The translations under genes and the position numbers were made by a program. From an uncultured delta proteobacterium (GTDB lineage: Bacteria > Desulfobacterota > Desulfobacteria > Desulfobacterales > JAHEIW01): a stretch of DNA of 64,000 nucleotides. How positions within the stretch are numbered: position 1 is the first letter of the stretch; the number at the start of each line of letters is the position of its first letter. The stretch lies in contig CAVPNL010000006.1 in assembly GCA_963706575.1 (NCBI GenBank), positions 256,001-320,000 on the forward strand. Direction: 5' to 3'. The notes under the pieces are model-generated. The model worked only from the letters and a program-made list of their open reading frames with translations. It was not told the DNA's origin and did not search any database. Of the stretch, positions 20,001-55,587 are shown in pieces.

Positions 20001-20029
20001 TTGACAGTGCCACAAAGTAGCATTAATAT
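20001..20029 (+). promoter_or_regulatory. Sigma70 promoter of tusA-nifS-nifU with 15-bp operator in the spacer
   Basis: TTGACA-17 bp-TAATAT; TGCCACAAAGTAGCA at 20008-20022. Confidence 0.7.
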
Positions 20030-20094
20030 TTACCTGACTAATGACGCGGCTGCCCTCTAAGTGGCCCATCAGGAAAAACAATACGGAGCACGAG

Positions 20095-20352
20095 ATGAAG
20101 TTTGTTAAGGGAAAGAAACCCGATGAATCTTTGGATTTGGTGTGTCGCATGTGCCCCATGCATCTGCTGGAACCGGGGGATAAGCTGAAATGTATGAAAA
20201 AGGGGCAGGTGCTGGAAGTGCTGACCGATTACGACGGAGCACTGGAGGATATCCCGGATTGGTGCAAAAAATGCGGCCATGAATTCATCGGCATGGAAGA
20301 AGATGACGATTACTATAAGTTCTATATAAAGAAGCAAAAAGATGAGAGCTGA
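20095..20352 (+). CDS. TusA/SirA-family sulfur carrier
   Basis: LDLVCRMCPM, GQVLEVLTD, DIPDWC, YYKFYIKK. Confidence 0.85.
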   Translation: MKFVKGKKPDESLDLVCRMCPMHLLEPGDKLKCMKKGQVLEVLTDYDGALEDIPDWCKKCGHEFIGMEEDDDYYKFYIKKQKDES

Positions 20353-20574
20353 AAGGTTTTTTACCACTTGTAAGGTGTATTGGATCAATGGAATGATGAA
20401 ATACTGGAATTCTGGAATGATGGGTTAGACGGATGGGAGATTATGAATTAGGCCATTTTCCGATTTACCCAATATTCCATTTATCGAGTATTCCATTATT
20501 CAATGGGCTGGATAAATTTAAAACGCTTATTTAAAGCGAAACCAGGTTAGAAATTTGCTAATAAGGAGAGTGTA

Positions 20575-21834
20575 ATGGAGGGCGCCTATCTGGATCATGC
20601 CTCGGCAACACCGGTCCGAAAAGAAGTTCTTGAAGCCATGCTTCCTTATTTTAGCGGACAGTTTGCCAATCCCTCAAATGTTTATGATCTGGGCTCAAAG
20701 ATCAAAGAGACAATAGAAGAAGCCCGCGCAAATGTAGCCGGACTGATCAATGCCGATCCCGCCCAAATCGTCTTTACGTCATCCGGTGCCGAAGCCAATA
20801 ATCTGGCCATAAAGGGCGTGGCTTTCGCCCAACAGAAAAAAGGCAATCACATCATCGTCTCTTCCATCGAGCATCATTCGGTTTTGAATTCGGCCCGCTT
20901 TTTGGAACGCCTGGATTTTGAGGCCAGCTTTCTGCCGGTTGATCAAAACGGCCGGGTTGATCCCGAGCGCCTGGCCAAGGCCATCCGGCCGGAGACGATA
21001 TTGGTTTCGATCATGCATGCCAACACCGAGATCGGAACCATCGAGCCCATCGCCGAGCTGGCGGCGATCTGCAAAGAAAAAGAGGTTGCCTTCCATAGCG
21101 ATGCGGTGGCATCAGTCGGCAACACCCCGGTGGATGTCAAGGCGCTCAACGTCGATTTGCTCAGTCTTTCCGGCCCGTCCCTGGGCGGCCCCAAGGGGAT
21201 CGGCGCCCTTTACTTTAACAAAAAGGTCAGATTGATGCCCCTGATCCACGGCGGCATCCAGGAAAACGGTCGCAGAGCCGGCACCGAAAACGTTCCCGGG
21301 ATTATCGGATTTGGCAGGGCCGCAGCACTGGCAAAAAAGGAGTTGCCTGAAAAAATAGACCACGTCCGCAAGTTAAGAGACCGCCTGGTGGGTGGTATCC
21401 TTAAAAAGGTCGAGAAGGTCACTTACACCGGTCATCCGCAAAAACGGCTACCCGGTCACGCCAGTTTTTGTTTCGAAGCCATCGAGGGCGAAGCCCTCAT
21501 TTTCATGCTGGCCCAGAACGGAATCTATACCAATACGGGATCCGCCTGCGCATCCAAGGCGCTGAAAACCTCACCGGTGCTCGGGGCCATCGGCTTACGG
21601 GCGGATCTGGCCCAGGGGTCCACTGTGTTTACCATTGATGCCAGCAACACCGAAGCAGAAATCGACTACGTGCTCGAAAAACTGCCACCGGTTGTCGATC
21701 GGCTGCGTGCCCTTTCGCCCATCTGGGGCAAGGAGATCCCGGAGTATGAAGAGCGATGCATGCGAGCACTGAGACAGGTTTTCACGCCGAGCGGCGCCCG
21801 GGCTTCGCTCGAGTCGCAGAGTAGGCAGAGTTAA
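20575..21834 (+). CDS. nifS: Cysteine desulfurase (NifS/IscS class I); C-terminus possibly extended by frameshift
   Basis: YLDHASATP, SSIEHHSV, GPKGIGALY, RAGTENV, GSACAS; the usual PLP-lysine motif SxHK reads SGPS here. Confidence 0.8.
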   Translation: MEGAYLDHASATPVRKEVLEAMLPYFSGQFANPSNVYDLGSKIKETIEEARANVAGLINADPAQIVFTSSGAEANNLAIKGVAFAQQKKGNHIIVSSIEHHSVLNSARFLERLDFEASFLPVDQNGRVDPERLAKAIRPETILVSIMHANTEIGTIEPIAELAAICKEKEVAFHSDAVASVGNTPVDVKALNVDLLSLSGPSLGGPKGIGALYFNKKVRLMPLIHGGIQENGRRAGTENVPGIIGFGRAAALAKKELPEKIDHVRKLRDRLVGGILKKVEKVTYTGHPQKRLPGHASFCFEAIEGEALIFMLAQNGIYTNTGSACASKALKTSPVLGAIGLRADLAQGSTVFTIDASNTEAEIDYVLEKLPPVVDRLRALSPIWGKEIPEYEERCMRALRQVFTPSGARASLESQSRQS

Positions 21835-21939
21835 TTTTTTTCTATGGCGAGTGTCTTAGCGAGCAAATGAAAGAAACTTATTCCTCCGAGATCTTTGCGT
21901 CTCTGTGGTGAATACAAGTCTCAATCGGGGAGGTAAAGG

Positions 21940-22314
21940 ATGTACACTGAAAAGGTGATGGACCATTTTTCCAATCCCAGAAATATCGGAGAAATCGAGA
22001 ATGCCGACGGGGTGGGTGAGGTCGGCAATCCGGTATGCGGTGATATGATGTCGTTTTACATCAACGTCGAGGATAATAGAATCGCCGACATCAAATTTAA
22101 GACATTTGGCTGCGTGGCAGCCATTGCGGTATCCAGCATGGTGACCGAAATGGCCATGGGAAAAACACTGGATGAGGCCAAAAAAATTACCAAAAAATCG
22201 GTGGCCGAATCCCTGGACGGCTTACCCAAAGAAAAAATGCACTGCTCCAACCTGGGCGCTGATGCCCTGACTAAGGCCATTGAGGATTTTGAGAGTAAAC
22301 AGTCAACTGCCTAG
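21940..22314 (+). CDS. nifU: Fe-S scaffold NifU/IscU
   Basis: HFSNPRN, GNPVCGD, FGCVAAIA, KMHCSNL. Confidence 0.92.
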   Translation: MYTEKVMDHFSNPRNIGEIENADGVGEVGNPVCGDMMSFYINVEDNRIADIKFKTFGCVAAIAVSSMVTEMAMGKTLDEAKKITKKSVAESLDGLPKEKMHCSNLGADALTKAIEDFESKQSTA

Positions 22315-22501
22315 CCCGGAACGAGCCGATGAAAAAAAGGCCTCACGCAAAGCCGCCAGAGTCGCAAAGATTAATTAAATTATATTCATTAATTTCCGGG
22401 AGCGGGTTGAATTCAATCATGAGATTTCTATTTCAATCACCGCTGCCGGATTTTTTTATTTGAGCATCTTGGTTTTTCACACTTTTTCACGGCTCTTTTT
22501 A

Positions 22502-22553
22502 TACCACAACGTGACATATTTTCCTTGACAACCATCCGTCAACAGGCTAAATT
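22502..22553 (+). promoter_or_regulatory. Operator plus sigma70 promoter with no credible downstream CDS
   Basis: TACCACAACGTGACA (22502-22516), 8 bp, TTGACA-17 bp-TAAATT. Confidence 0.6.
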
Positions 22554-22559
22554 TGTGCC

Positions 22560-22754
22560 CTGGTATGCGATTGGACTCTTTTCCGTTGTCGCATACTTCT
22601 TGATGCGAAGGTGGATGTCCTTGCCAGGCAGCCATCAGTGTCAATCCTCTCCTAAAGAGGGGGCGGCTCCGGGTTTCCCTTTATCCAGCCTTAGATCGAT
22701 TTATTATGGATTTGGCTCACAAAACCCAGTGCCAAGGAGTCGTCCCCCTTTTTT
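22560..22754 (+). ncRNA. Candidate structured small RNA
   Basis: Promoter upstream; 5' stem GTATGCGA/TCGCATAC; 3' stem AGGGGGCGGCTCC/GGAGTCGTCCCCCT with inner GGGTTT/AAACCC, ending in T-run. Confidence 0.4.
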
Positions 22755-22772
22755 CCAGAATCCAAAGAGTTT

Positions 22773-23679
22773 TTATATGCCAAAAAACTTCAGAATATAT
22801 TTTGATGCCACCATAATAATTACGGTTCCCAGCATCAGTTTTATCCAGCGTCCCGGCATATGTTTTTGGACTCTGGCGCCCAGATACATCCCCATCAGCC
22901 CTCCCGCGCCGAACAGGATACCCAGCAACCAATCCGGGGCGGCCACCGCCCCGTTGATCGGGATGAGACTGTAAAAGGTCACACCGGCCAGCGATGAAAC
23001 GAAGGTTCCCAATAATACAGCACCGGCAATGGCGTACACGGGTAGTCTGAAAACGGTGATTAAAAACGGTGCGATAATCGCACCGCCGCCGATACCGTAG
23101 ACACCGCCGATAATACCCACCACCAGGGCCAGTCCGAGTAGCTGTGCGGTTGCAAAAGAATAGGTGGCGTCTTTGAAGTTAAAACGGGTGGCTTTCAAGG
23201 CGATTGACGCTTCTTCCACCCTATCGGTGAGGGTGCAGCTTTCCGTGGTTTGGGATGCCGCGGTTTTACCGTTTAATGCTTCTTTTAAAAGTTTGACCGC
23301 AATCAACAATAAGACACAGCCCACAAAAAACTTGAATGTTTTCGGATCCGGCAAATAGGTGATGCGCAGATAATAACCGATAAGGACGCCGGGGATAATG
23401 CCGGCCACAATCAAAATCGCCACGGGCCACACGAAGCGGCACTCTCTGGTATAGCGGTAAACACCGCCGGGTGTGCCGGTCACATTGTACAGAAAGTTGG
23501 TGGCTGTTACCGAAGGACTCGTGAACCCCAGGACACTCATTTGAAACGGCAGCAGCAAAAAGGCACCGGAGATGCCACCCATGGAAGTAAAAAAGGAAAT
23601 GCCGAAGGCCACCAGACGGCGGGATTAAAATGGAAGTCTCCACTCCGGAGAGCGGAAATGTAAATTGTAAAAATGCCAT
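22773..23679 (-). pseudogene. TauE/SafE sulfite exporter family; +1 frameshift near 23616
   Basis: MAFLQFTFPLSGVETSILIPP then other frame LVAFGISFFTSMGGISGAFLLLPFQ...GIGGGAIIAP; span = 3n+1. Confidence 0.8.
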
Positions 23680-23826
23680 GCGGATCAATGTAAATCGGAA
23701 GAAGTTGATTTAAGAGGCTGTCCAATAACGGGTTCTGGGGGAAAATGAAACGGAATCAGCGTCTTTTTAGCCCCTCCCCTTGATCCCCTCCCGTCAAGGG
23801 AGGGGAAACGAGTTGTGGACGGGCTC

Positions 23827-24405
23827 TCAAGGATCACTGGGAATCCAGATGAGCTCCGGGTTCAGCTTATCGGTCCAGGGGACGCCTGAATTTCTCCAGC
23901 CGTTTTCAAATCGCTTGCCGTAAAAAGAACTGGAAGTATCCTTAACCCGATCTCCTTCGAAGCCATCGGTAACCGAATAGGCGATCTTGAAACCGGCCGA
24001 TGCCATTGCATTTACGGCGGCGGCGCTGCGGTTGCCGGAGCGGCAGATCACCACAATGGTATCGGACGGTTTGAATTTCCGGCCGACTTCATTGATAAAA
24101 TTTGGGTTGGCCTTCATCAAAGGCCCTTTATTGCGTACAGCCATTTTATAATTGAACAAATGAAAAGGGATATTATGGGCCATGGGGGCATGACCGACAA
24201 AAATGTATTCTTCCGGTGTCCGGACGTCTAAAATTTTGATTTTGTTTTTGTCCGCCAGCCACATTTCATAGGCTTCTTTGGCCGTCACATAAAGCCCCAG
24301 GACGGTCTGCTTTTGTGGAGGCAAAGTTGATTTTGCCGTCGATATTGAAAAGCAGCTCAATAAGAGTAAAATCGCAATTGATATTGCAAATAACTTTTTA
24401 TTCAT
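23827..24405 (-). CDS. Exported rhodanese-domain sulfurtransferase
   Basis: Signal peptide; LDVRTPEEY, ICRSGNRS, DGFEGD, NGW. Confidence 0.88.
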   Translation of the reverse strand: MNKKLFAISIAILLLLSCFSISTAKSTLPPQKQTVLGLYVTAKEAYEMWLADKNKIKILDVRTPEEYIFVGHAPMAHNIPFHLFNYKMAVRNKGPLMKANPNFINEVGRKFKPSDTIVVICRSGNRSAAAVNAMASAGFKIAYSVTDGFEGDRVKDTSSSFYGKRFENGWRNSGVPWTDKLNPELIWIPSDP

Positions 24406-24458
24406 TTCATCTATCCTATATTATTTCAGAAGTCGGGGAATTTTTTCATTCCGTGGGT

Positions 24459-24530
24459 GTCATTCCCGCGAAAGCGGGAATCCAGAAAAGTTTTGCTGAA
24501 AACTGGATGCCCGCTTGGCGCGGGCATGAC
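24459..24530. repeat. GTCAT-type REP doublet
   Basis: GTCATTCCCGCGAAAGCGGGAATCC ... GGATGCCCGCTTGGCGCGGGCATGAC; inverted sibling at 41196-41269. Confidence 0.8.
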
Positions 24531-24554
24531 GGTAAAACTCCCCGATCACTTATT

Positions 24555-24884
24555 TTAATTAAAAATACCGCCAAAAATTTTGTCATCGGCGGACACACAT
24601 TGTGCTTTTAAAAGTTTGTACTTTTTAAGGAGCGCCTTACCCTCTTGAGAGAGGCGCGATCCCTCTTTGCGGTCCGTATGCACAATGCAGGCATTCATGT
24701 GTTTTTCAGTCGTCTTGATTTTGCTCCAAACAGCTTTGTACGACATTTTCATCAATTTGGCGGCCTGATTCATAGAGCCCGTCCGATCAATATGTTCCAG
24801 AATTTTGGCTCGGCCTTCCCCAATAATAATGTTGTTGTCTGCATCCACAATCCACTGGCTCGATTTTAATTTGAGGTTTGCCAT
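24555..24884 (-). CDS. ModE N-terminal-type winged-helix regulator (no Mop domain)
   Basis: IIGEGRAKILEHIDRTGSMNQAAKLMKMSYKAVWSKI. Confidence 0.82.
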   Translation of the reverse strand: MANLKLKSSQWIVDADNNIIIGEGRAKILEHIDRTGSMNQAAKLMKMSYKAVWSKIKTTEKHMNACIVHTDRKEGSRLSQEGKALLKKYKLLKAQCVSADDKIFGGIFN

Positions 24885-25035
24885 ATTCAAATCCTGATGA
24901 TGGGTTATCAAAAATGGGATATAACCACGAAGAACACAAAGAGTGAAAGTCTTTGAATAGTAAAAATATCTTCGTGAACTTCATTTTCTTCGTGGTGAAA
25001 AAGATTTAACTGTAAAAAATATTAAAGAACAAACG

Positions 25036-26055
25036 CTATTTCATCGCACAATGATAAGGGCAATCAGCCCCGATGGCGCGCATGGCCCTCCGGCAGGCGT
25101 GTTGATGCTCTTTGGCGTTTAATTGGTGACCGGAGGGTTTTTCAGCCACCGCCTGTCTGAAAATGTTGATAATATCTTTTTGGGTTGCGCCGGTTCTCAG
25201 GGCGGTTTTGATATCGATTTCTTCCCTTGAAAACAGACAGGTTTTTATTTTTCCGTCAGCAGTCAGCCGCAGGCGATTGCAGGACCCACAAAAATGCCAG
25301 CTGATGGGGGCAATGAAACCGACTTTACCAGCCGCACCCGGAAGCCTGCAGAGCCTTGCCGGTCCGTAGGAATCGGTGGCCGGCTCGATTTGAACCTGGT
25401 CAATTTGATGTATCCTTTTCATAAATTCTTCAACCGGTATAAAAAGCGATTCATAATTGCCGTAGGCCGAGCTGTCGGTGGGCATCAGTTCGATAAAGCG
25501 CACATGGTATGGCTTATCCAGGGTTAAGCGAGCCAGATCTTCGATTTCATCATCATTGATGCCGCGTATCACCACGGTGTTAATCTTGATGGGATGCATT
25601 CCGGTCTGCTCGGCGCGTTTGATGCCGGCCAGCACCCGGGGCAGCCAATTGTATCCGGTTATTTTTTCAAACCGTTCCGGCTTTAAGGTGTCCAGGCTGA
25701 TATTGATTCTGCGAACGCCGGCCTTAAACAGCGGTTCGGCCATTTCCGCAAGATATATCCCGTTGGTTGTCAGGGCCAGGCTTTTTAAACCGTCTATCTC
25801 CGAAAGCATCCGGCAGAATTCAACCACGCCTTTTCTGACCAGCGGCTCGCCACCGGTGACCCTTATTTTGGTTATGCCGGTTGCTGCCGCCGCCCGGGCG
25901 ACGTTAAGCATCTCCTCATAGGTTAAAATTTCCGAACGCGCCAGATGACTGCGGCCTGAAAACGGCGTGCAATAATAACATTTCAAATTACAATGATCGG
26001 TGATGGATATGCGCAGGTAATCGATTTTCCGTCCGTAGCTATCAATAAGGTTCAT
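25036..26055 (-). CDS. moaA: GTP 3',8-cyclase MoaA; terminal GG motif lost by apparent 1-bp deletion
   Basis: YLRISITDHCNLKCYYC, TGGEPL, FCGSCNRLRLTADG, MRAIG. Confidence 0.92.
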   Translation of the reverse strand: MNLIDSYGRKIDYLRISITDHCNLKCYYCTPFSGRSHLARSEILTYEEMLNVARAAAATGITKIRVTGGEPLVRKGVVEFCRMLSEIDGLKSLALTTNGIYLAEMAEPLFKAGVRRINISLDTLKPERFEKITGYNWLPRVLAGIKRAEQTGMHPIKINTVVIRGINDDEIEDLARLTLDKPYHVRFIELMPTDSSAYGNYESLFIPVEEFMKRIHQIDQVQIEPATDSYGPARLCRLPGAAGKVGFIAPISWHFCGSCNRLRLTADGKIKTCLFSREEIDIKTALRTGATQKDIINIFRQAVAEKPSGHQLNAKEHQHACRRAMRAIGADCPYHCAMK

Positions 26056-26137
26056 CGTGTTTCAGCTCCAATTCCATGACATAATGAATAAAGAAAGTCT
26101 CACGCAAAGTCGCAAAGAATTTATTTAATTAAACCCG

Positions 26138-26293
26138 TAGAAGCGGTTCAAAACCTCAATTCGTGTTCGAGCGACAAGGCGGCCTATTCATTTGTATAAG
26201 CGGTTAGAATACTATCGAAGTATGTGAGCATGTTTAAATCGGCTGGCATACGCAGTCAATCAAATCGAGATGCAGGTTTTGAAGCCGCATTTA
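26138..26293. repeat. ERIC/RPE-like palindromic element (156 bp)
   Basis: TAGAAGCGGTTCAAAACCT ... AGGTTTTGAAGCCGCATTTA; core ATACTATCGAAGTATGTGAGCA; right end supplies TAA of the adjacent gene. Confidence 0.7.
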
Positions 26294-27316
26294 TTTGCCG
26301 AATGGGCAGTGCGGATACACACATTCTTCACAATCCTTGCACAGCCCCCCGTGGCCTAAAAAAGCAAGCTCGGCCTTGCCGATTTTTTCACCGGCTAAAA
26401 TCCGCGGAAGTATCAGGTCCAGCACGGTAATGCGGTGAAACAGGCCGCAGGCCGGCACCCCCAGCAGCGGCACATCCCCCACATAAGCCACCAGAAACAT
26501 GGCGCCGGGCAGGACCGAGGCCCCGTAGTGCATCTCACCGGCACCGGCGGAGCGGATTCCCTGGCGGGTGACATCATCGGGGTCCACGCTCATGCCGCCG
26601 CTGAGCATCAGCAAGTTACAGCCCCTGTCCAGATGGGAGCGAATGGCTGCGCGGATAAGTTCGGCGTCATCCGGAGCATAGGTCACTTCAGACACTTCCG
26701 AACCCAGGGCGTTGACCTTTTCGCTTAGGATCGGCGCAAAACGGTCCTCGATCAGACCGTGGTAAACTTCGTTGCCGGTAATCACCAGACCCACTTTTGC
26801 TTTTCGGATGGGCCGAATTGCAAGCACCGCACCGTTCTGGCGGGCGATGGCTGCGGCGCGTTGGATGGGTGCGCGTTTCATGATCAGCGGAATTGCGCGG
26901 GTGGCGGCGACCAGTTCCCCTTTTTTGACAAGGGTGTGATTGTGAAGGGTGGCGCACATAACCTCATCGACCATGTTAAAGGCAGCCAGTGCAGCGGTGT
27001 TAACGGCAAACAGGCCGTCTTTTTCTGCCAGCAGCTTGATTTTCCCTTCCCGCGGTTCGTCCTTCCAGACAATGCCGTCACCGGCCAGCGCATCGGCCAA
27101 AATGGCGGCCGCCTGGTCCTCATGAATTTCGTCGTCATCAAGGTCGATGACGTAGAGATGATTTTTCCCCATTTTCTGAAGACGGCAGAGATCTTCGTTG
27201 CAGACCGTGTGTCCTTTGTGAAAGGCTGCGCCTTTGAATTCTCCAGGTCGAATCTCGGTCATATCGTGTGCTAATTTAGTACCGACTGCATCTTTGAGCT
27301 CAATTTTTTTCAACAT
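26291..27316 (-). CDS. Molybdopterin-binding (MoeA/MogA-like) protein
   Basis: AHDMTEIRPG, ITGNEV, SGGMSVDPDDVT, VLPGAM, HGGLCKDCEECVYPHCPFGK. Confidence 0.85.
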   Translation of the reverse strand: MLKKIELKDAVGTKLAHDMTEIRPGEFKGAAFHKGHTVCNEDLCRLQKMGKNHLYVIDLDDDEIHEDQAAAILADALAGDGIVWKDEPREGKIKLLAEKDGLFAVNTAALAAFNMVDEVMCATLHNHTLVKKGELVAATRAIPLIMKRAPIQRAAAIARQNGAVLAIRPIRKAKVGLVITGNEVYHGLIEDRFAPILSEKVNALGSEVSEVTYAPDDAELIRAAIRSHLDRGCNLLMLSGGMSVDPDDVTRQGIRSAGAGEMHYGASVLPGAMFLVAYVGDVPLLGVPACGLFHRITVLDLILPRILAGEKIGKAELAFLGHGGLCKDCEECVYPHCPFGK

Positions 27317-27419
27317 AGCGAAAACTCCTTTATCTTCAAGGCAAAAGGCGCAAGGTTCAAGGCACAGGGCGAGAAGAGAACGAACCCGATATCAACCTTA
27401 GCTAGGTCGATAAGCCCTA

Positions 27420-28097
27420 TCAATAGCAATTCTTTTCAGCGATCTTTGCGTCTTTGCGGCTTTGCGTGAGGCTGCTTTCCGGTTTCCAGTTCATATCCGG
27501 CCAGGTTATTTCCGCAGCGTCTGTAAAATAGCTGTCCTGTGCACAGGGTTTGCAGAGAACCGCGCCATCTTGAATAACCTCTCTTTGGTCGCGCACCACC
27601 TGACCGCAGCGGCTGCAGAAGGTCTTGTAACGGGTGGGGCCGGGCAGGTCGCATTCGTTTATCTTTACTTTGACCTGCTGTACCCGAAAAAGCACGCTGT
27701 CGGGCATGCGTTTGTATGCTTCCAGCTGCTGCGGGTATTTATCGGCAATTTCCGGCGCATAGGCGCTGGCCAGGCTGCGCGCCGCTTCGGTGGAAACCAC
27801 CCGAAAGGCTTTGCCGGTTTCCAGATTTACAAAGGTGGCTGCCATAATGCCGTAGTCCATAAATTTGAGCGAACGCCGTCCCAGTTTGACACCGGTCACA
27901 TGCGCCACCGCATCGGCGGTACAGCGGTCCATCTCGACGTAAATGATCAATTTTTTAATCTGATCGTGACGCCTGGGCTCATCGAGGCCGATCAGACGGC
28001 AACCCAGCATGGCCATGCGGACACCCACCACCTGTCCGGGGCAAAGGTGCCCATGGGCGTCGGCCGAGCCTTCCAGCAGGTCTTCAAAAGCATCCAT
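27420..28097 (-). CDS. FmdE-family protein with C-terminal Zn finger
   Basis: HGHLCPGQVVGVRM, EMDRCTADA, CSRCG..CKPC. Confidence 0.85.
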   Translation of the reverse strand: MDAFEDLLEGSADAHGHLCPGQVVGVRMAMLGCRLIGLDEPRRHDQIKKLIIYVEMDRCTADAVAHVTGVKLGRRSLKFMDYGIMAATFVNLETGKAFRVVSTEAARSLASAYAPEIADKYPQQLEAYKRMPDSVLFRVQQVKVKINECDLPGPTRYKTFCSRCGQVVRDQREVIQDGAVLCKPCAQDSYFTDAAEITWPDMNWKPESSLTQSRKDAKIAEKNCY

Positions 28098-28295: not shown

Positions 28296-28310
28296 GGCCA
28301 CAAGGTGGCA
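28296..28310. promoter_or_regulatory. 15-bp operator upstream of fmdE/Moco genes
   Basis: GGCCACAAGGTGGCA. Confidence 0.55.
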
Positions 28311-28828: not shown

Positions 28829-29527
28829 TTACACCCGGAGTGAATTTATTTCAACGTGTTTTTCTGAATTAAGCCGGCTGGAAACGGAATCAAGAACGGA
28901 GCACACGACCTGATAATTCTCATTCAAAAAGGCTTCGGTTGCTTTTGCCAGATTCCGGTAAAACGGGTTTTCAGCGTATTCTATGATGCTCCTGGCAAAT
29001 TCCGGCACCCAGGCCATCAGGTGATCTTCCAGAAAAAATTTTTGTTTTTGAACAAAATTCATGGCCGTTTCTACGTCTGCACGGGAGAAGGCTTCGATTT
29101 CTTTGAAAATTAAATAATACATGAATTCAAGTTCAGCGCTGATGTGATCGGGGGCATCTTTAAAATTTTTAGCGGTGTCCAATCCCGCATCCCGGTATCT
29201 GTTTTTTACGTCAAGGGTTGAGTCGCCCATAACCTTTCTTTCCTCGTCTAAATACACCGATCCGTAGGGTGCGGCGAACAGCGTAAACGGGCCGATAAAT
29301 AGTTTTGCAAAATCGACTTTTAACGGCTCAATATCCGCACCGACTTTGAGTTCTTTGCGCATGCTTTGAACCCATTGGGCCGCCGGCTCACACACATCCG
29401 CCATGTTTAATTCCAGGTTTTTCAATTTTTCAGATAACCCCGGATCCGGCAAAAAATAACAGTCGCTCAACATTCGAAATGCCTTCATTCTCGACGATTC
29501 ATAGTTTAACAGGTTTTTTGCTTCCAT
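28829..29527 (-). CDS. arrD: TorD/DmsD-family chaperone (ArrD)
   Basis: FAKLFIGP, APYGSVY, PDHISAELEFM, FLEDHL. Confidence 0.85.
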   Translation of the reverse strand: MEAKNLLNYESSRMKAFRMLSDCYFLPDPGLSEKLKNLELNMADVCEPAAQWVQSMRKELKVGADIEPLKVDFAKLFIGPFTLFAAPYGSVYLDEERKVMGDSTLDVKNRYRDAGLDTAKNFKDAPDHISAELEFMYYLIFKEIEAFSRADVETAMNFVQKQKFFLEDHLMAWVPEFARSIIEYAENPFYRNLAKATEAFLNENYQVVCSVLDSVSSRLNSEKHVEINSLRV

Positions 29528-29572
29528 GCTTATCCTTGTGTAAAACCTAAAAGCTTTGAGGGTGAGTTAATA

Positions 29573-29611
29573 CGATGCCGGCCCGCTGTTCGAGTTTTCG
29601 AGCCGGCATCG
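29573..29611. terminator. GC-rich hairpin between arrC and arrD (terminator or mRNA stabiliser)
   Basis: CGATGCCGGC / GCCGGCATCG 10-bp stem. Confidence 0.45.
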
Positions 29612-29630
29612 CATGCCATATGTTCGTTGT

Positions 29631-31496: not shown

Positions 31497-31507
31497 AGGT
31501 TCACCTC

Positions 31508-34090: not shown

Positions 34091-34138
34091 ATTACCTCCC
34101 TTCGTTAACCTTCTTAAACCTTAAAGATGGTTCAAGAA

Positions 34139-34587: not shown

Positions 34588-34614
34588 TACCACAACGTAG
34601 CAAGGGTTATGCCA
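34588..34614 (-). promoter_or_regulatory. Sigma54 -24/-12 promoter of arr operon overlapped by the 15-bp operator
   Basis: TGGCATAACCCTTGCT (GG-N10-GC, 34614-34599); TACCACAACGTAGCA at 34588-34602. Confidence 0.75.
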
Positions 34615-34778
34615 GAACGAACCCGAAAATCGTCAGGTGTTCAATTTAGGAGCATTTATGCGACAGGTTTAAATTTAAGCAATTGAAATTTAATCAAATA
34701 AAATTGAAGAGAAAAAGCTGGGAATTGAAAATTTAATTTCAGTAGAAGGGTGAATTGCAGGCAGGATTTTTTTAAACC

Positions 34779-37599: not shown

Positions 37600-37603
37600 A
37601 CTT

Positions 37604-47753: not shown

Positions 47754-48353
47754 CTAAATATTGCCAATCAAAAAAATGCCATAAGTCGCTCTGACATTGG
47801 GTAAAAATTTGATAATCTTGCCGTAGCGGTCCTGCGAATGGGCATTAATGGCAACTTCTTTTAAAATTTTCAAACCGACATCATGAATAAATTTTCTAAA
47901 ATCCTTGATGGTAATCACCCGAATATTGGGTGTGTTATACCATTGATAGGGCAGCTGTTTGGTGACCGGCGCATATCCGGAGCTCAGCAGCTGCATCCGA
48001 CAGGCCCAATGACTGAAATTCGGAAAACTGACAATACCCTTTTTGCCGATGCGCATTATTGCACGAATAAGTGTATCCGGCTCATAGACCTGCTGCAACG
48101 TCTGGCTCAAAATGACATAATCAAAAGTTTGTTCCGGATAATCGGGGACTTCCTCATTGATGTCTCCCTGCAGAACCGTTAATCCCTTTTCGATGCATGC
48201 GGCGACCTTTTCTTCCTGCAGTTCGATCCCCGAACCGGTCACCTTTTTTTTATTCATTAAATATCGCAGCAGTTCGCCGTTGCCACATCCCAGATCGAGA
48301 ACATGGGATCCCGGGTCTATCCAGCTGGCGATAATCTGAAGATCATAGCGCAT
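47754..48353 (-). CDS. metW: Methionine biosynthesis protein MetW
   Basis: VLDLGCGNGELL, FDYVILSQTLQ, SFPNF, WYNTPNI; follows metX. Confidence 0.9.
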   Translation of the reverse strand: MRYDLQIIASWIDPGSHVLDLGCGNGELLRYLMNKKKVTGSGIELQEEKVAACIEKGLTVLQGDINEEVPDYPEQTFDYVILSQTLQQVYEPDTLIRAIMRIGKKGIVSFPNFSHWACRMQLLSSGYAPVTKQLPYQWYNTPNIRVITIKDFRKFIHDVGLKILKEVAINAHSQDRYGKIIKFLPNVRATYGIFLIGNI

Positions 48354-48357
48354 TCTG

Positions 48358-49530
48358 TTATTTTGTGTTTTCACGGCAGACACGTTCTAAAAATCCTTTG
48401 ATCAAAGTTGTCAATCGTGGGTTGGGGATTAAAAAGGCGTCGTGGCCCCACTCGGCTTCGATTTCACAAAAGCTTACATCCAGTCCGTTTTTCTTCATGG
48501 CTTTGACCATGGCCTTGGATTGGTAGGTTGGGTAGAGCCAGTCGGAAGTAAAGGATACCACCAGAAATTTGGCTTTGGCCTTTGAAAAGGCTTTTACCGC
48601 TGAGCCTTCACCGTATTGATTTCCCATGTCATAATAATCGCTGGCCTTGGTGATGTAGAGAAAGGAGTTGGCATCGAAGCGATCCACAAATTTTTTGCCC
48701 TGATAACGCAAATAACTTTCCACCTGGAAATCTGCATCGAAGTTAAATGAAAAATCGCCCTTATCCTGTAAGCGCCGCCCGAACTTGAGACGCATGGATT
48801 CATCCGATAAATAGGTAATATGGCCGATCATGCGGGCCACCGCCAGCCCCAGATTCGGTTTGGGCCCGTAATAATAGTTGCCGCTGTTCCAGTTGGGGTC
48901 GGCCATGATCGCCTGTCTGGCCACCTCGTTAAAAGCAATGGCCAGGGCCGAGTGTTTGGTAGTGCTGGCCAGTGGAATGGCTGAAACCACCATGTCCGGG
49001 TACCTTACCGCCCACTCCAGCACCTGCATGCCGCCGATAGAGCCGCCGACCACGCACAAAATTTTTTCGATTCCCAGATGATCCATCAGTTTTTTTTGGG
49101 CCGCAACCATGTCGCCGATGGTAACCACCGGAAAATCAAGCGCATAGGGCTGGATATTTTTCGGGTTGGTGCTGCAGGGCCCGGTAGATCCCATACAGCT
49201 GCCGATAATATTGGAGCAGATTACAAAATATTTACCGGTATCAATTCCCTTGCCGGGTCCCACCATAATATCCCACCAGCCGGGCTTTTCGTCGTCTTCC
49301 TTATAATAGCCGGCGGCGTGAGAATCTCCGGAAAGGGCATGCAGAATCAAGATGACATTGCTTTTGTCTGCATTTAATTCACCGTAGGTTTCATAGGCAA
49401 GGGTTACCGGTCCGAGTCTGGCGCCGTTTTCCAGTACCATTTCATCGGGCGGCTCGGCAAAAGTGAAGAATTTCTTCTCCACAATACCCACGGAAATGCC
49501 TTCTTGATCGTGTTCGATATATTCGCTCAT
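48358..49530 (-). CDS. metX: Homoserine O-acetyltransferase
   Basis: HALSGDSH, PGWWD, GGSIGG, RFDANSFLY, GHDAFL. Confidence 0.92.
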   Translation of the reverse strand: MSEYIEHDQEGISVGIVEKKFFTFAEPPDEMVLENGARLGPVTLAYETYGELNADKSNVILILHALSGDSHAAGYYKEDDEKPGWWDIMVGPGKGIDTGKYFVICSNIIGSCMGSTGPCSTNPKNIQPYALDFPVVTIGDMVAAQKKLMDHLGIEKILCVVGGSIGGMQVLEWAVRYPDMVVSAIPLASTTKHSALAIAFNEVARQAIMADPNWNSGNYYYGPKPNLGLAVARMIGHITYLSDESMRLKFGRRLQDKGDFSFNFDADFQVESYLRYQGKKFVDRFDANSFLYITKASDYYDMGNQYGEGSAVKAFSKAKAKFLVVSFTSDWLYPTYQSKAMVKAMKKNGLDVSFCEIEAEWGHDAFLIPNPRLTTLIKGFLERVCRENTK

Positions 49531-49752
49531 AACCGAAAAACCGTTAAATCTGGATATAACCACGAAAACACGAAAAACTTATCTTTTTTCTTTCGTGTTT
49601 CAGTTTTTTCGTGCTTTCGTGGTGAATAATTTTTTAATATCAGATTCTACAATGCCAGAAACAAGGCCCCTTTTTTACCGCCCATCCAAATCACGGTGCA
49701 AAAAGGGCCATCTGATTTTGTTACTTGATTTTTTTTATAAGGGCAAGAGAAA

Positions 49753-51039
49753 TCAGGTTTGGGCAAATGCCTGTTCTAAATCCTGCTTGATATCATCAAT
49801 GTGCTCGAGACCGATTGACAGGCGCACAAGATTCGGCGTCAATCCACCGGCTCTTTGTTGTTCTTCGCTTAATTGCGAGTGGGTCGTACTTGCAGGGTGA
49901 ATAACAAGACTTTTGGCATCTCCGACATTTGCCAGATGAGAAAACAGTTTCAGGCTGTCCACAAATTTTTGGCCGGCTTCAAGACCGCCTTTAATCCCAA
50001 AAACCACCATGCCGCCGAAACCGTTTTTAAGGTATTTGCTGGCAACCGGGTAGGTTGGATCATCCTCTAAGCCGGGATAACGCACCCATTCCACGTTGGC
50101 GTGTTCCTTCAGGAATCGAGCCACCGCGGATGCGTTTTCACAATGGCGCTGCATGCGCAGAGGCAGGGTTTCCAATCCCTGTAAAAACATCCAGGCATTG
50201 TCCGGGGAAATACATGCTCCCAGGTTGCGCAGGGGCACCAGCCGCATTCGCAGGATAAAAGCGATGGGATTCATGTCGCCCAGATCATGGGCGTAACGGA
50301 TATCGTGGTAGCTGGGATCAGGCTCGTTGTAGAGCTTAAATTTTGGGTCCTGCCAGTCAAATTTTCCCGAATCGATCACAATGCCGCCAATACCGGTGCC
50401 GTGTCCTCCCATCCATTTGGTGAGGGAATTCACGACGATGTCGGCCCCATGCTCGATTGATTTCAGCAAATAGGGCGAGGTAAAGGTGGCATCGACAATC
50501 AACGGCAGATTGTGGCTGTGGGCAATCTCAGCGACTGCGCTGATGTCTGTAAACTCCAGCACCGGATTGCCGATGGTTTCAATAAATATGGCCCGGGTTT
50601 TATCGGTGATTACATTGGCAAAATTGTCCGGATCGCGGGCATCCGCAAAGTTTACCTGGATGCCGAATTGCGGAAGAATGCAATCAAACATCGTATAGGT
50701 GCCGCCATATAAGTTGGTGGCAGATACGATTTCATCCCCGGCCTCACAGATATTGATAATCGTATAATACACTGCCGATGTACCGGAAGCTAAGGCCAGT
50801 GCTGCTGCTCCGCCTTCCAGCGCCGCAACCCGCTGCTCGAGTACATCCTGGGTGGGATTCATGATTCGGGTGTAAATATTTCCCGGTTCCTTGAGTGCAA
50901 AAAGATTGGCGGCATGTTCGGTGCTGTTGAATACATAAGAAGAAGTGCGGTGCACCGGCACCCCTCTGGCGGTGGTGGCCGGATCGGGTTGCTGGCCGGC
51001 GTGCAGACACTGTGTTTCAAATTTATAATTGTCATTCAT
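49753..51039 (-). CDS. metY: O-acetylhomoserine sulfhydrylase
   Basis: YTRIMNPT, SLTKWMGGHG, HLANVGDAKSLVIHPASTTH. Confidence 0.92.
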   Translation of the reverse strand: MNDNYKFETQCLHAGQQPDPATTARGVPVHRTSSYVFNSTEHAANLFALKEPGNIYTRIMNPTQDVLEQRVAALEGGAAALALASGTSAVYYTIINICEAGDEIVSATNLYGGTYTMFDCILPQFGIQVNFADARDPDNFANVITDKTRAIFIETIGNPVLEFTDISAVAEIAHSHNLPLIVDATFTSPYLLKSIEHGADIVVNSLTKWMGGHGTGIGGIVIDSGKFDWQDPKFKLYNEPDPSYHDIRYAHDLGDMNPIAFILRMRLVPLRNLGACISPDNAWMFLQGLETLPLRMQRHCENASAVARFLKEHANVEWVRYPGLEDDPTYPVASKYLKNGFGGMVVFGIKGGLEAGQKFVDSLKLFSHLANVGDAKSLVIHPASTTHSQLSEEQQRAGGLTPNLVRLSIGLEHIDDIKQDLEQAFAQT

Positions 51040-51145: not shown

Positions 51146-51523
51146 TTATCCGATCAGGGGCCCAAATACTTCACAGGTCTTGCAGATCTTCATTTTTTCT
51201 TTCCAGTTTTTCTGAGCCGTACCGTCGCAAATGGTTCCATTGATAAACCAACAAAGCTCACCCGCCCCGAACTCCCAGGCCGGGCATTGGCTTTTTTGTT
51301 CCGGGCTGCATTTTTTAACCTGCCAGCAGGCTTTCAATTTGCCTTTTTGGGAATTTTGCTTAACGGTTAAAAAATACATCTGGCGTTCAACCGCTGCAGG
51401 AACACTGCGCCAACCCTGCTCATAGCTGTGCACGGCCTTAAGCGATACACCCAATAGCTGGGCCATTTGAGCCTGAGTTTTGCCTAATTTTGCTCTAAAC
51501 TCTTTAAACTCTGAACTTTCCAT
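51146..51523 (-). CDS. XRE-type HTH regulator with Cys-rich two-CW domain (paralog 2)
   Basis: KTQAQMAQLLGVSLKAVHSYEQGWRSVP; same 7-Cys pattern as 34887-35261. Confidence 0.85.
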   Translation of the reverse strand: MESSEFKEFRAKLGKTQAQMAQLLGVSLKAVHSYEQGWRSVPAAVERQMYFLTVKQNSQKGKLKACWQVKKCSPEQKSQCPAWEFGAGELCWFINGTICDGTAQKNWKEKMKICKTCEVFGPLIG

Positions 51524-51571: not shown

Positions 51572-51600
51572 AATTTGATACATTGTGGCAGTTGTGTCAA
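51572..51600 (-). promoter_or_regulatory. Sigma70-type promoter with operator in spacer (regulator 2-metY)
   Basis: TTGACA CAAC TGCCACAATGTATCA AATT. Confidence 0.65.
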
Positions 51601-51638: not shown

Positions 51639-52724
51639 TCACAGCGCGGCGCTGATAATGCCGCCGCCCAACACCGTATCATCAGCATAGATTACCGCCG
51701 ACTGTCCGGGGGTTACCGACATCTGTGGTTTTTTAAATAATATCCTGGTTTGCTCCCGATCCGGCGGATAAACCGTTGCATCCGTCTCTTTGTGCCGGAG
51801 GCGGATTTTGACCTGTACGTCCAGCGGCCGCTCGATGCGATCGACGCCAATCAAATTTAAATCGGTGGCAACCAGACCTTTTGAACGATGCTCATGATGG
51901 CTGACAACAATACGATTTTTGGCCGCATCGATTCGACTGACATACAGGGGCTTATGGGAGGCGATGCCAAGGCCGCGGCGCTGGCCGATGGTATAATGGA
52001 TGATCCCCCGGTGTTCCCCGAGGACCTGACCTTTTTCATCCACAATTTCTCCGGCTTCAATTTCGTCTTCAGAAAAAAGAATGGAATAATCCCCGCCGTC
52101 AATAAAATCCTGGCTTTCTTCGCGATCTGCTGTTTCCAGCCCGAGCGCGCGCGCCATCTCCCGGACCTGCTGCTTGGTATGATCTCCCACCGGAAATAGT
52201 GAGCGTGCGAGCTGCTGCGGTCTGAGGCCGTAAAGAAAATAAGTCTGATCTTTAACGCGGTCCGCAGCGCGCTTCAACAAAAAGCGGTTACCCGACTTTA
52301 CAATCCGGGCGTAATGACCGGTGGCAAAATAATCAAAATCGCAACCGGCCTGTCTGGCCTTTTCCAGAAGAAAGCCGAACTTGAGTTTCTGGTTGCACAC
52401 CACGCATGGATTTGGGGTTTTGCCTTCCAGGTATTCGTTTCGGAAGTAATCGATAACATGATTTTTATATTCCTGCCGCAAGTCAATTGCCTGAAACGGA
52501 ATCTTGAGCTTTTCGCAAATGGCGGCCGCCGATTCAACATCTTCTTTCTCGCCGGGGCCGTAGCAGGCATGTTTGGCAGATTCATCAAACTGAATGGATC
52601 CATCATAAATTTCCATGGTAATACCGTAAACTTCATAATCCTGTTTGCGCAGCAATGCTGCGGCAACCGAAGAATCCACGCCACCGCTCAGTCCAACCGC
52701 TACTTTTATTTTTTTATTTTTCAT
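51639..52724 (-). CDS. mnmA: tRNA 2-thiouridylase MnmA
   Basis: SGGVDS, PNPCVVCN, ATGHYA, KDQTYFL, YTIGQRRGL, PGQSAV. Confidence 0.9.
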   Translation of the reverse strand: MKNKKIKVAVGLSGGVDSSVAAALLRKQDYEVYGITMEIYDGSIQFDESAKHACYGPGEKEDVESAAAICEKLKIPFQAIDLRQEYKNHVIDYFRNEYLEGKTPNPCVVCNQKLKFGFLLEKARQAGCDFDYFATGHYARIVKSGNRFLLKRAADRVKDQTYFLYGLRPQQLARSLFPVGDHTKQQVREMARALGLETADREESQDFIDGGDYSILFSEDEIEAGEIVDEKGQVLGEHRGIIHYTIGQRRGLGIASHKPLYVSRIDAAKNRIVVSHHEHRSKGLVATDLNLIGVDRIERPLDVQVKIRLRHKETDATVYPPDREQTRILFKKPQMSVTPGQSAVIYADDTVLGGGIISAAL

Positions 52725-52856
52725 TATAAAATTCTCCAAAGGAGAATCAACCTCATCGAACGACATCCGACTACCACGAAGAACACGAAGAAATATTTAG
52801 CTAAAACCTTTTAAGCGCTTCTTGAACTTCGTGTCCTTCGTGGTGAAATATTGTTT

Positions 52857-53705
52857 TTACGATTTCTTCAAGGCCGCATTCAGTGAACCGCTTTTAAAGC
52901 CGTCTAAATCCAGGGTGACATATAAAAAGCCGAATCCGTGAAGCTTTTGGCTGATGGCCTCTCGATGCCGAATGGCCAACTCGAAATCCTCAGGTGCGAC
53001 TTCGATCCGGGCCGTATCGCCGTGGTGCCGCACTCTGAGCACCTTAAAGCCGAGACCGCTCAGAAAATCTTCTGCAGCCTCAATCTGTTTGAGCTTCTCC
53101 ACGCTGACCTCCTGGCCGTAGGCAATTCGGCTGGCCATGCAGGGCATGGCGGGTTTGTCGGCAACTTCCAGGCCGAAAAAGTTGCAGACCGTTCGGATTG
53201 CGGTTTTATCCATTTTCAATTCCAAATAAGGAGCCTGAATGGCGGCTTCGTCAGCCGCCTGCATGCCCGGACGGTAATCACCAAGATCATCAAGATTAAC
53301 CCCGTAAAAAACCGGCCAGGATGAGTGGCTGAAGGGATTGCCCGGCTGCATGCGCAGTTCCTCGATCCTTTCAAACAGGGCTTTCTTGCAATGGTAACAG
53401 CGATCGCTCTGGTTTGCTGCATAAAACGGATTTTGCATTTCGCGAGTATCAATAATTTCTAAAGGAATGTCGTGCGCCTTTGCAAAAGCCACGGCATGGC
53501 GGTATTCCCTGCGCGAAAGCGAGGGGCTGTCTGCCAGAGCGGCCAGCATATTATCTCCTAAATTCAGATGGGCGACATATGCCAGCAGGGCACTGTCGAC
53601 CCCGCCACTGTATGCGATGATGGCCCCTTCATGGCCGGAAAAATACGCTTTTAAATTTGCGGCCCAGGCTTCAGGGGCTAGATTTTGTTTTGCGGTTTTC
53701 TGCAT
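52857..53705 (-). CDS. LarE-family ATP-dependent sulfur transferase
   Basis: YSGGVDS, RCYHCK, DDLGDYRPG, PCMASRI, RVRHH, GFKSGSLN. Confidence 0.88.
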   Translation of the reverse strand: MQKTAKQNLAPEAWAANLKAYFSGHEGAIIAYSGGVDSALLAYVAHLNLGDNMLAALADSPSLSRREYRHAVAFAKAHDIPLEIIDTREMQNPFYAANQSDRCYHCKKALFERIEELRMQPGNPFSHSSWPVFYGVNLDDLGDYRPGMQAADEAAIQAPYLELKMDKTAIRTVCNFFGLEVADKPAMPCMASRIAYGQEVSVEKLKQIEAAEDFLSGLGFKVLRVRHHGDTARIEVAPEDFELAIRHREAISQKLHGFGFLYVTLDLDGFKSGSLNAALKKS

Positions 53706-53854
53706 CTCAGAGTATTTTCAAGAAAAAAGTTTCACCACAAAGGCACGAAGAGTTCAAAGAAAAAAAAATTTATACTGCTTGAGCACTTTGTGAACTTTGT
53801 GCCTTTGTGGTTGAATATTGTTAAATGGCAAATGCTAAGCGATATAAAATCTGG

Positions 53855-53883
53855 ATTTTGTTACATTGTGGCAGTTTAGTCAA
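53855..53883 (-). promoter_or_regulatory. Sigma70-type promoter with operator in spacer (larE-mnmA)
   Basis: TTGACT AAAC TGCCACAATGTAACA AAAT. Confidence 0.65.
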
Positions 53884-54093
53884 TGAAAAAAACAACTTGG
53901 ATGGCAATGGGAATTCGGAAGGGTCAACCAAACAAAGGAAAATGGGTTAAGGCAAGAAAATCAAGTCATCTCCCCCCCCCTGTAAAAAGGGGCTGAAGCA
54001 ATAACGTTGTCGCCCTTATTGAAACCTTACAATGTTTTTGAAAAAGTGGTCGGCTGCAAAACCGCATCGCCCTGCGCAACCGCAAGCCGGTTT

Positions 54094-54642
54094 TTACCGG
54101 AGCGTTTCTACATCATCGATCGCGTATTTTATCTTTTTGACTGTTTTGAGCATACGGGTATAAGCCATGGCCAAACCAATGTTTCTTGCCAACACCGACA
54201 GCGAGTCCACATCTTTTTCCGAAATGTCCCAAACGTCATGATGATAGAGTCGCAGGGCTCCGATAACGTTATCATAAAATTTGATGGGAATGGACACGAT
54301 GGCCCCGATGCCTTCTTTTTTAGCATCCTCAGGGTATTGCAGGCGGTCAGTCTTATTTATATCTCGAATGATAATTGGCGTTCCCTCTAATGTCCCGCCA
54401 ATGCTTTTATCTTTTAGAATCGGACCCTTATGGACGTAACTCATGCTTAACCCAAAGCTTGCCAATACTTCCAGCTCTTCTGTTTCCGGATTTATCACAA
54501 AAATCGTACATCCTTTCATTTCAAGCGTTGCGACCAGCAACTGCGTAAGGTGATTGGCCATAATTTCCAGATTATCCGATTGGGCCATTGCTTTGAAGAC
54601 GACTTTAAAAAGATCAATATCTATTTTTTCTTCGGCTGGCAT
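54094..54642 (-). CDS. Stand-alone GAF-domain protein
   Basis: LASFGLS..YVHKGP, LQYPEDAKKEGI, VIGALRLY. Confidence 0.8.
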   Translation of the reverse strand: MPAEEKIDIDLFKVVFKAMAQSDNLEIMANHLTQLLVATLEMKGCTIFVINPETEELEVLASFGLSMSYVHKGPILKDKSIGGTLEGTPIIIRDINKTDRLQYPEDAKKEGIGAIVSIPIKFYDNVIGALRLYHHDVWDISEKDVDSLSVLARNIGLAMAYTRMLKTVKKIKYAIDDVETLR

Positions 54643-54657
54643 GAAATCCCTCCTTTT

Positions 54658-55122
54658 CTAAGATACAATACAAACAGTGACGCCCTTGAGGGTCATTACG
54701 ACCTTATGTGAAATACTGCCCGAGAAAAAGCGGGTGACCCGAGCATGTTTTCGATTGAGAACAATGATGTCGAACTTATCACTGGTCGCCAGTTCAATAA
54801 TTTCGGAAGCGATATCCTTTTTTCGGGGCCTAAAAATACAATCAACCCGGTTTTCCGGGAAACCACCTTCAATGAGTTTATCCTTGACTTCATCAAGCAG
54901 TGCCTCATATTCCTTAATTTTCTGGGAAAGATAACTTAAGCTTCCCTTGAGTTTGCTTGTTACCGAAGTTGCATCCGTATCAATCTCAGGAATCGGCGTG
55001 TATGCATTAAATACGGTAACTGAAATATTCTCCAACTTCCCGAAGGTGTTGGTCACGAAATTCAGCGCTTTTTGGTCAAGGTGGGTAAAATGATAGGGCA
55101 GCAATAGTTTTTGAGTGGCCAT
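54658..55122 (-). CDS. Universal stress protein
   Basis: DIASEII, FDIIVLNR, FSGSISHKV, VCIV. Confidence 0.8.
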   Translation of the reverse strand: MATQKLLLPYHFTHLDQKALNFVTNTFGKLENISVTVFNAYTPIPEIDTDATSVTSKLKGSLSYLSQKIKEYEALLDEVKDKLIEGGFPENRVDCIFRPRKKDIASEIIELATSDKFDIIVLNRKHARVTRFFSGSISHKVVMTLKGVTVCIVS

Positions 55123-55587
55123 TGGTTTCCCCCTTAAGGCTTATTCGGGTTTGACAGATATAGGCATATACCTCGCGGCCAGAATAGGAGGTATCAAAAG
55201 AACGGTTCAAGCGAGTAAATAGCGCCTGTGTACCGTATATAAGGACAATTGGAAAGGGTGGATAACAGGATTCGGGTCCGGCGCTGCTGCAGTACCAAGG
55301 TAATTTATCTGCGAGGGTGAGATACCCAGTACGCACAATTGATTATCCGTTTGCAGTGAAAAAAGTCTCATAAAGTGGTGGCATGTGTCAATAAAAAATT
55401 TTGTTTTAAATGGATTTGCATTTAGCCGATTTTTTCTAAAACCGCGATTTCTCAGTATTTAAAACCCTTGATTTTTGCCTGCAAAATTGAAATGGTGTTA
55501 AGCTCCATTTTTTGCGGCTGAAAAATCCAGTCTGAGAATACAAACAGCAAATTAATTATCTGCTAAGCCCCTTACAGGAGATCACCG

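Follow-up and report, generated by a model that had tools for sequence, protein, structure and literature searches.

A 15-bp palindrome with well-supported candidate XRE/two-CW regulators marks a phylum-wide, apparently undescribed regulon in Desulfobacterota

A 15-bp palindrome recurs at promoters in a 64-kb stretch of an uncultured delta proteobacterium (G000:C6:256001-320000, hereafter the window; assembly of 5.67 Mb, 92% complete), whose closest relatives are labelled Desulfobacterales. The stretch also encodes two paralogous proteins with an XRE helix-turn-helix and a cysteine-rich two-CW domain, which a first-pass annotation had named as the likely binders of the palindrome and as possible regulators of sulfur-, molybdenum cofactor- and arsenate-related genes. 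The gene labels of that annotation were mostly confirmed by Pfam and NCBIfam profile scans of the window genes, and a tRNA scan and an Rfam search returned no tRNA and no Rfam family within the 64 kb. The features are as follows, with matches to the palindrome called operators and scored in bits with the matrix described below:

20008-20022, plus strand: operator in the spacer of the sigma-70-type promoter TTGACA-17-TAATAT of tusA-nifS-nifU (17.5 bits)
20095-22314, plus strand: tusA (20095-20352), nifS (20575-21834) and nifU (21940-22314), by profile scans
22502-22516, plus strand: operator 8 bp upstream of TTGACA-17-TAAATT, a possible activator geometry (19.1 bits)
22560-22752, plus strand: putative non-coding RNA of ~190 nucleotides (nt) with a terminator-like stem at its end (fold z = -3.2)
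22773-28097, minus strand: gene run fmdE, moeA-like, moaA, modE-like, rhodanese, tauE, by profile scans
28296-28310, minus strand: operator upstream of fmdE, with TTAACA 2 bp upstream (14.9 bits)
28829-34528, minus strand: receiver-like gene, arrA-like, arrB-like, nrfD-type anchor and torD-type chaperone, by profile scans
34588-34615, minus strand: operator (34588-34602) overlapping the -12 GC of the sigma-54 promoter TGGCA-N6-TTGC (19.8 bits)
34887-35261, minus strand: regulator 1 (P0001), XRE helix-turn-helix plus seven-cysteine two-CW domain, 124 residues (NF045718, 50.9 bits)
35367-35381, minus strand: operator 8 bp before the -35 box of regulator 1, where the sigma-54 activator gene has its 3' end (24.2 bits)
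35401-38539, minus strand: HAMP/sigma-54 activator (35401-37623) and ArrX-like binding protein (37604-38539), by profile scans
38608-38622, minus strand: operator 5 bp after TTGACC, proximal arrX promoter (14.5 bits)
38765-38779, minus strand: operator 5 bp after TTGACA, distal arrX promoter (15.3 bits)
47754-51039, minus strand: metY-metX-metW directly downstream of regulator 2, by profile scan
51146-51523, minus strand: regulator 2 (P0002), XRE plus two-CW paralog, 125 residues (NF045718, 51.5 bits)
51576-51590, minus strand: operator 4 bp after TTGACA of regulator 2-metYXW (18.1 bits)
51639-53705, minus strand: larE and mnmA, sulfur insertases, both above NCBIfam cut-off
53859-53873, minus strand: operator 4 bp after TTGACT of larE-mnmA (19.0 bits)
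54094-55122, minus strand: usp and GAF-domain genes, by Pfam scan
55366-55380, minus strand: degenerate operator 5 bp after TTGACA of usp-GAF (-0.9 bits here)

To avoid circularity, the scoring matrix was trained on relatives only, being learned de novo by expectation maximization from the 250 bp upstream of 79 loci homologous to the regulator gene in other genomes. Its consensus is TRCCACAWTGTGGYA, with the core form TRCCAC-N3-GTGGYA. Every one of the ten 15-mers that the first-pass annotation had listed is present in the window, and nine of them occupy ranks 1 to 9 by this matrix (14.5 to 24.2 bits), followed by a next-best match of 6.2 bits. The tenth, at 55366, drops out by score (rank 71), though its position is kept in relatives: the usp promoter carries a site of at least 12 bits at the same position in 9 of 15 orthologs, and we therefore regard it as a decayed member. 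The sites are intergenic and 5' of genes, as had been claimed, except for 22502, which lies between two 3' ends and heads only the putative RNA. In 100 first-order Markov resamples, matches of at least 14 bits numbered 0.13 on average and two at most. Across the genome, rounded scores gave 25 matches at this threshold, of which 24 were intergenic and nine lay inside the window, while the unrounded count was 23 intergenic and one coding, with the intergenic/coding split depending on gene calls from a crude open reading frame picker. Forty column-permuted palindromic matrices gave means of 4.1 intergenic (maximum 12) and 15.2 coding matches.

Both candidate regulators exceed the curated cut-off of 35 of NF045718, the NCBIfam model of the two-CW domain. 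P0002 is 66% identical to P0001, and the recognition helix is near-identical in the two and near-invariant among close homologs where the motif occurs; both paralogs should therefore read the same site. The N-terminal helix-turn-helix has weak Pfam matches to HTH_3, HTH_19 and HTH_31. A first structure model was poor in the cysteine domain, and the model built from a deep alignment reached a predicted local distance difference test score of 95.6, with the first 60 residues forming an XRE fold that aligns to MqsA, HigA2, Aca and SO3848 at Z 8-11. The fold searches matched residues 1-60 only, and the structure atlas gave no usable match for the cysteine domain, whose seven cysteines are each conserved in 109 to 120 of 121 aligned sequences; both CW motifs are conserved too. 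No Rrf2 match (PF02082) was found on either protein in the Pfam scan, and the two Rrf2 genes of the genome lie elsewhere, separate from both. The XRE/two-CW unit also occurs fused to a sigma-54 activator (P0150), and the cysteine domain alone is fused to chemoreceptors that also carry a CZB domain. In four genomes (G227, G136, G166 and G101), a PAS histidine-kinase-like protein carries the whole unit as a fusion partner, and a site stands upstream in all four. Elsewhere in G000 (C16:12725-14761), a two-CW domain protein stands directly behind a hemerythrin-like gene, the latter label being given from sequence and not from a family scan.

The first-pass annotation had proposed that the motif should be conserved upstream of XRE/two-CW orthologs, and this is what was found. 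Using a separate matrix built from the window's own sites, a site of at least 12 bits lies within 250 bp upstream in 70 of the 79 homolog loci, compared with a background of 33 of the genome's own 5,120 genes and 0.6% of resamples; de novo expectation maximization on the 79 upstream regions returns the same palindrome. Among the nine loci without a site, at least four lie directly behind the coding end of a sigma-54 activator. In an even sample of 200 other genomes of the phylum, the XRE/two-CW gene is present in 33, and a site stands upstream in 18 of 29 fetched loci, PAS-kinase fusions included. The exact strict pattern occurs in 15 of the 33 phylum genomes with the gene versus 3 of the 167 without it, a reversed-pattern control is found in 3 of the 200, and in seven gene-bearing genomes a site sits on a contig that lacks the gene. 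Within the order (36 genomes, one per family, with the gene called at E < 1e-30), the exact pattern is found in 15 of 18 genomes with a full-length gene versus 4 of 18 without. This upstream conservation and co-occurrence strongly support the XRE/two-CW proteins as binders, and both very probably bind the palindrome.

The position of the sites within promoters is also constrained. Among 229 non-redundant sites of at least 14 bits, gathered from all loci fetched by then and including many orthologous promoters, 141 lie 0-7 bp after TTGACN (104 at a gap of 4-5), and 11 lie 7-8 bp before TTGAC. For sites before the regulator gene itself, the gap is 4 in 35 of 70 orthologs, which is the typical autoregulatory geometry of the family. 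The layout previously described for the window, namely six sites that follow TTGAC by 1-5 bp, two that precede a -35 by 8 bp and one on a sigma-54 -12, stands in outline, with two corrections: the -35 below site 35367 reads TTGGCC here and TTGACC in relatives, and site 28296 has no TTGAC but the TTAACA given above. Since the motif mostly fills the spacer between -35 and -10, repression is likely the main mode; it is probable both for sites in the spacer and for the one on the sigma-54 -12. The geometry of 22502 and 35367, each 8 bp ahead of a -35, tentatively suggests activation there.

Conservation of the individual window sites varies. Before tusA, a site of at least 10 bits is kept in five of seven close nifS orthologs; the products match Pfam TusA, TIGR03402 (nifS, below cut-off) and TIGR03419 (nifU, above cut-off). 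Just upstream of tusA, a napA-like cluster with multiheme cytochromes and DsrO/DsrP-like partners (13186-19488) has no operator of at least 14 bits. Over the -35 of the putative RNA, an inverted repeat TTGAC-N8-GTCAA (22525-22542) may represent either another site or a promoter running in the divergent direction. The fmdE site is partly kept (at least 11 bits in 6 of 19 orthologs), as are the proximal arrX site (at least 12 bits in five of nine) and the larE site (at least 12 bits in 5 of 18 homologs). At the arr sigma-54 promoter, a site of at least 12 bits is present in six of eight orthologous promoters. The arrA-like and arrB-like products score below the cut-offs of their models (ArrA, 1283 versus 1600 bits; ArrB, 340 versus 450), and the arrA-like product has an RGRY motif, which we take to be meaningful for ArrA. 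The operator at 35367 has the best score in the window, and its 7-8 bp geometry recurs in several orthologs. The adjoining ArrX-like lipoprotein and membrane-bound HAMP/sigma-54 activator (35401-38539) come with no kinase gene. The ArrX-like protein has a cysteine in ICSGPY, and the AioX/ArrX cysteine described in PMC5908839 supports the label.

Beyond the window, the commonest neighbours in 108 regulator loci are metX (41) and metY (40), followed by methyltransferases including metW, usp, GAF, sigma-54 activator, larE and mnmA genes. Sites directly before metY are rare (1 of 42 loci; metY sites are seen in G111 and G031), because the regulator gene usually lies between, and no site was found before mnmA in 10 loci. 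The regulator gene is divergent from nifU-nifS, with a site between them, in G029 (where cysE-cysK follow) and G057, both from other families; it adjoins tusA-nifS-nifU in G022 and G023, while a site precedes nifU-nifS in G058 and G035 and cysE in G059. In G188, sites precede a thrC-like/thiI-like/yedF/moaD/thi4 run and moeB. Further sites in G000 stand before an nfuA-like gene, a small-gene cluster with a DsrE-like member, a NuoEF-like operon and an Rrf2-hmc operon. Variable targets comprise cooS (two genomes), hcp, multiheme cytochromes, PilZ and YHS proteins. In one genome, a perfect operator follows TTGACA upstream of aprBA (L252, G121:C14:25256); aprBA was rejected as a general target, since only 1 of 22 aprB loci has a site, with none in G000, which makes this a single-genome case. 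The recurrent predicted targets are nifS/nifU/tusA/nfuA, cysE-cysK, metYXW, larE, usp, arrX and the sigma-54 arr promoter. The sulfur theme first proposed holds and sharpens to iron-sulfur (Fe-S) assembly and sulfur mobilisation, while the molybdenum cofactor and arr branches are present but only as family-level additions. The predicted regulon is wider than the first-pass annotation saw, extending genome-wide to small RNAs and lineage-specific redox genes.

A different palindrome, AGYTACAWTGTAGYT, with nearby AGCTAC repeats, occurs in G000 at C1:328183, C1:334295 and C3:350867 before iorA-like and alcohol-dehydrogenase-like genes and probably belongs to another regulator. ARAGORN also calls tRNA-Pyl (CUA) and tRNA-Sec in this genome (C15:118432-118505 and C3:141925-142022).

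Operators also head predicted small RNAs. One family has two copies in G000, C13:10114-10204 and C9:227901-228005 (L342 and L343), with sites at C13:10090 and C9:227876 directly after TTGACA, followed by a unit of 90-105 nt with conserved C-rich stretches, TACCTC and CCTCC, that resemble anti-Shine-Dalgarno sequences, and ending in a GC stem and T run. A covariance model found the family in 24 of 61 genomes from three taxonomic families, and TTGACA with the directly following site is kept at 29 of 30 fetched loci. Pairing in the terminal stem reaches 99.5%, and 3 of its 10 pairs show two-sided changes, a pattern that supports a predicted terminator and not a function. Eight loci, including both G000 copies, gave no Rfam match at the gathering score, and searches of the 92%-complete assembly found neither Hfq nor CsrA. 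That the RNA would be made on de-repression and would pair with ribosome-binding sites has, in our judgement, about an even chance. Predicting targets from duplex energies across ~5,100 crude gene starts gave no coherent set. Two other non-coding units, both on the minus strand under perfect operators and with one to three relatives each, are a ~70-nt hairpin unit at C2:80141 (L170), common to G023, and a ~200-nt GGA-rich unit at C15:271677 (L171), divergent from rseC and common to G015. A search of 30 relatives did not recover the candidate RNA downstream of 22502. In a contig from a related strain, a match to it runs on from the operator and shows 20 differences over 466 letters, compared with 30 over 272 for nifU. 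RNA-library contigs were rejected as expression evidence: their sources are related strains with ~90-96% identity, they may represent DNA, and they give no start, strand or level.

Taken together, we lean slightly towards a model in which a dimeric XRE/two-CW repressor would sit at TRCCACAWTGTGGYA between -35 and -10 and be released when its seven-cysteine domain loses a predicted Fe-S cluster. With sulfur and clusters plentiful, the repressor would block nifSU, tusA, nfuA, the met and cys genes, larE-mnmA, arrX, the arr promoter and the small RNAs. When reduced sulfur or Fe-S supply runs short, the predicted cluster would be lost and the repressor would let go, so that a cell leaving sulfide-rich growth might switch on cysteine desulfurase, sulfur carriers and the sulfide-scavenging MetY and CysK, and de-repression might also license arsenate sensing and respiration. 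The part of this model in which an Fe-S cofactor reports sulfur or Fe-S sufficiency is plausible, at somewhat short of even chances. Still more tentative is the broadest form, in which XRE/two-CW proteins would be an undescribed Fe-S-sensor class doing the job of IscR in about one-sixth of Desulfobacterota, linking the supply of Fe-S clusters and sulfur to which respiration is used (arsenate, and adenylylsulfate reduction in one genome) and working through an Hfq-independent anti-Shine-Dalgarno small-RNA family.

Several observations weigh against these proteins as the binders. A site is lacking upstream in 11 of the 29 phylum loci, and the Fisher p-values of 6e-4 and 4e-11 overstate the association because kin are not independent. 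In G193 (95% complete), seven matches versus two for the control were counted and the regulator was not found; G045 (79% complete) and G059 (61%) likewise have strong sites and no regulator found, while G052 and G060 have the gene and no excess of sites. The genomes with sites alone would be expected if another transcription factor bound the palindrome and the XRE/two-CW gene were simply a conserved regulon member, and other regulatory genes exist (two of the Rrf2 type, one ModE-like and one for a sigma-54 activator). However, the gene keeps its site in unrelated neighbourhoods and even when fused to PAS kinases, the 167 genomes without the gene show the motif only at background level, the recognition helix hardly varies wherever the motif occurs, and the exceptions are fragmented assemblies, which together make such a factor quite improbable. 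It would take even more to explain the motif as a by-product of promoters that needs no regulator, its right half resembling an extended -10 box (TGnTATAAT) beside TTGACA. The right end of the site does overlap the -10 position at gaps of 4-5, but the left half-site is the more informative (10.6 versus 8.8 bits), sites also occur at gaps of 0-2, upstream of a -35 and on a sigma-54 promoter, and the motif falls to background in genomes without the gene. Given the conserved left half-site, we rejected this artefact, whose probability we consider negligible.

The nature of the signal is where the proposed Fe-S-sensing repressor meets its main rival, which keeps the binder and the operator and takes the seven cysteines as a zinc-thiolate or a thiol/persulfide switch, with repression released by sulfane sulfur, oxygen or nitric oxide, much as in sensors of the CstR/SqrR or redox type. 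This is the main rival because hcp, a type III sulfide:quinone oxidoreductase (SQR), tauE, rhodaneses and usp occur as targets or neighbours and because the cysteine spacing has no ferredoxin CxxCxxC motif, a lack that also counts against the proposed cluster; tusA, DsrE-like, cytochrome c', DoxX and redoxin genes are likewise among targets or neighbours, and the domain recurs in CZB chemoreceptors and beside the hemerythrin-like gene of G000. Yet the targets that recur most across families belong to Fe-S assembly and to cysteine and methionine synthesis, not to detoxification, and hcp and cytochrome c' were seen once each; we hold such a switch to be unlikely, though a serious contender. Other findings tell against sensing of sulfur or Fe-S supply: 12 of 16 loci of a second nifS type, the one seen in G029, G057, G058 and G035, have no site of at least 12 bits, the other two nifU/nifS loci of G000 and its cysE-cysK have none, many of the predicted targets fall outside the sulfur genes (PilZ, YHS, cytochromes, hcp, cooS, hmc, NuoEF-like), and starvation explains the joint release of enzymes that consume clusters no better than a redox or sulfide signal does.

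Relatives of this organism among sulfate reducers dominate marine sediments and run on Fe-S enzymes, and the analysis names a protein and provides a site of 15 bp, a list of targets and a family of small RNAs, all amenable to direct in vitro test. It also provides a first functional handle on the two-CW domain, recurrent in many signalling proteins, which, if the broadest form of the Fe-S model is true, would be a portable Fe-S sensor also in kinases, chemoreceptors and sigma-54 activators. The arr link would tie the mobilisation of arsenic in sediments to cellular sulfur status.

Comparative regulon studies have covered Desulfovibrionales and Desulfuromonadales (PMC545781, PMC4239095), and in the accessible parts of these papers the delta-proteobacterial regulons SahR, LysX, Fur and Zur have other motifs, although they share with the present system palindromic operators before amino-acid and cofactor genes. 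As described there, the LysX site has the hexamers GTGGTA and TACCAC in common with ours but is a 20-bp GTGGTACT-N4-AGTACCAC with the halves in opposite order, and the SahR site is a 20-bp ArsR site that does not match TRCCAC-N3-GTGGYA. In the open-access literature, we found no description of the protein, the site or the RNA, no mention of the term "two-CW domain" (NF045718 names the domain only) or of a site or regulon for it, and nothing on the control of Fe-S assembly in Desulfobacterales.

Persulfide sensors of the CstR/SqrR type and cyanobacterial SufR use sensing sites of two to four cysteines. The present system resembles these regulators in having tauE, rhodanese, tusA and SQR among its targets or neighbours and in lying divergent from an Fe-S assembly operon; by description, it is set apart from all three by their different DNA-binding folds and fewer sensing cysteines. 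The repressor-plus-small-RNA circuits Fur-RyhB and Rex-RsaE/RoxS and the C-rich "cuckoo" RNAs share with the present system a repressor site within the promoter of a short RNA (predicted in our case) that ends in a terminator and exposes CCUC/CCUCC stretches complementary to ribosome-binding sites. Points of difference are that the RNA here has no Rfam match and that neither Hfq nor CsrA was found in the genome. The closest likeness is with IscR and CymR, autoregulated repressors of the Rrf2 family with a cysteine-rich sensor part, which control nifS/nifU-cysE-cysK type operons, have further sites at anaerobic respiratory genes and take an Fe-S cluster or a CysK complex as their signal; IscR-type regulators usually lie beside nifU-nifS-type operons. 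By site position, the own gene and a cysteine desulfurase/scaffold operon are under the site here too, the sensor part is again rich in cysteine and a second set of sites lies at anaerobic respiratory genes, but in place of the Rrf2 winged helix there is an XRE helix-turn-helix joined to a two-CW domain. The circuit is best read as one like IscR/RyhB that would be built on a different protein family and would sense sulfur or Fe-S supply.

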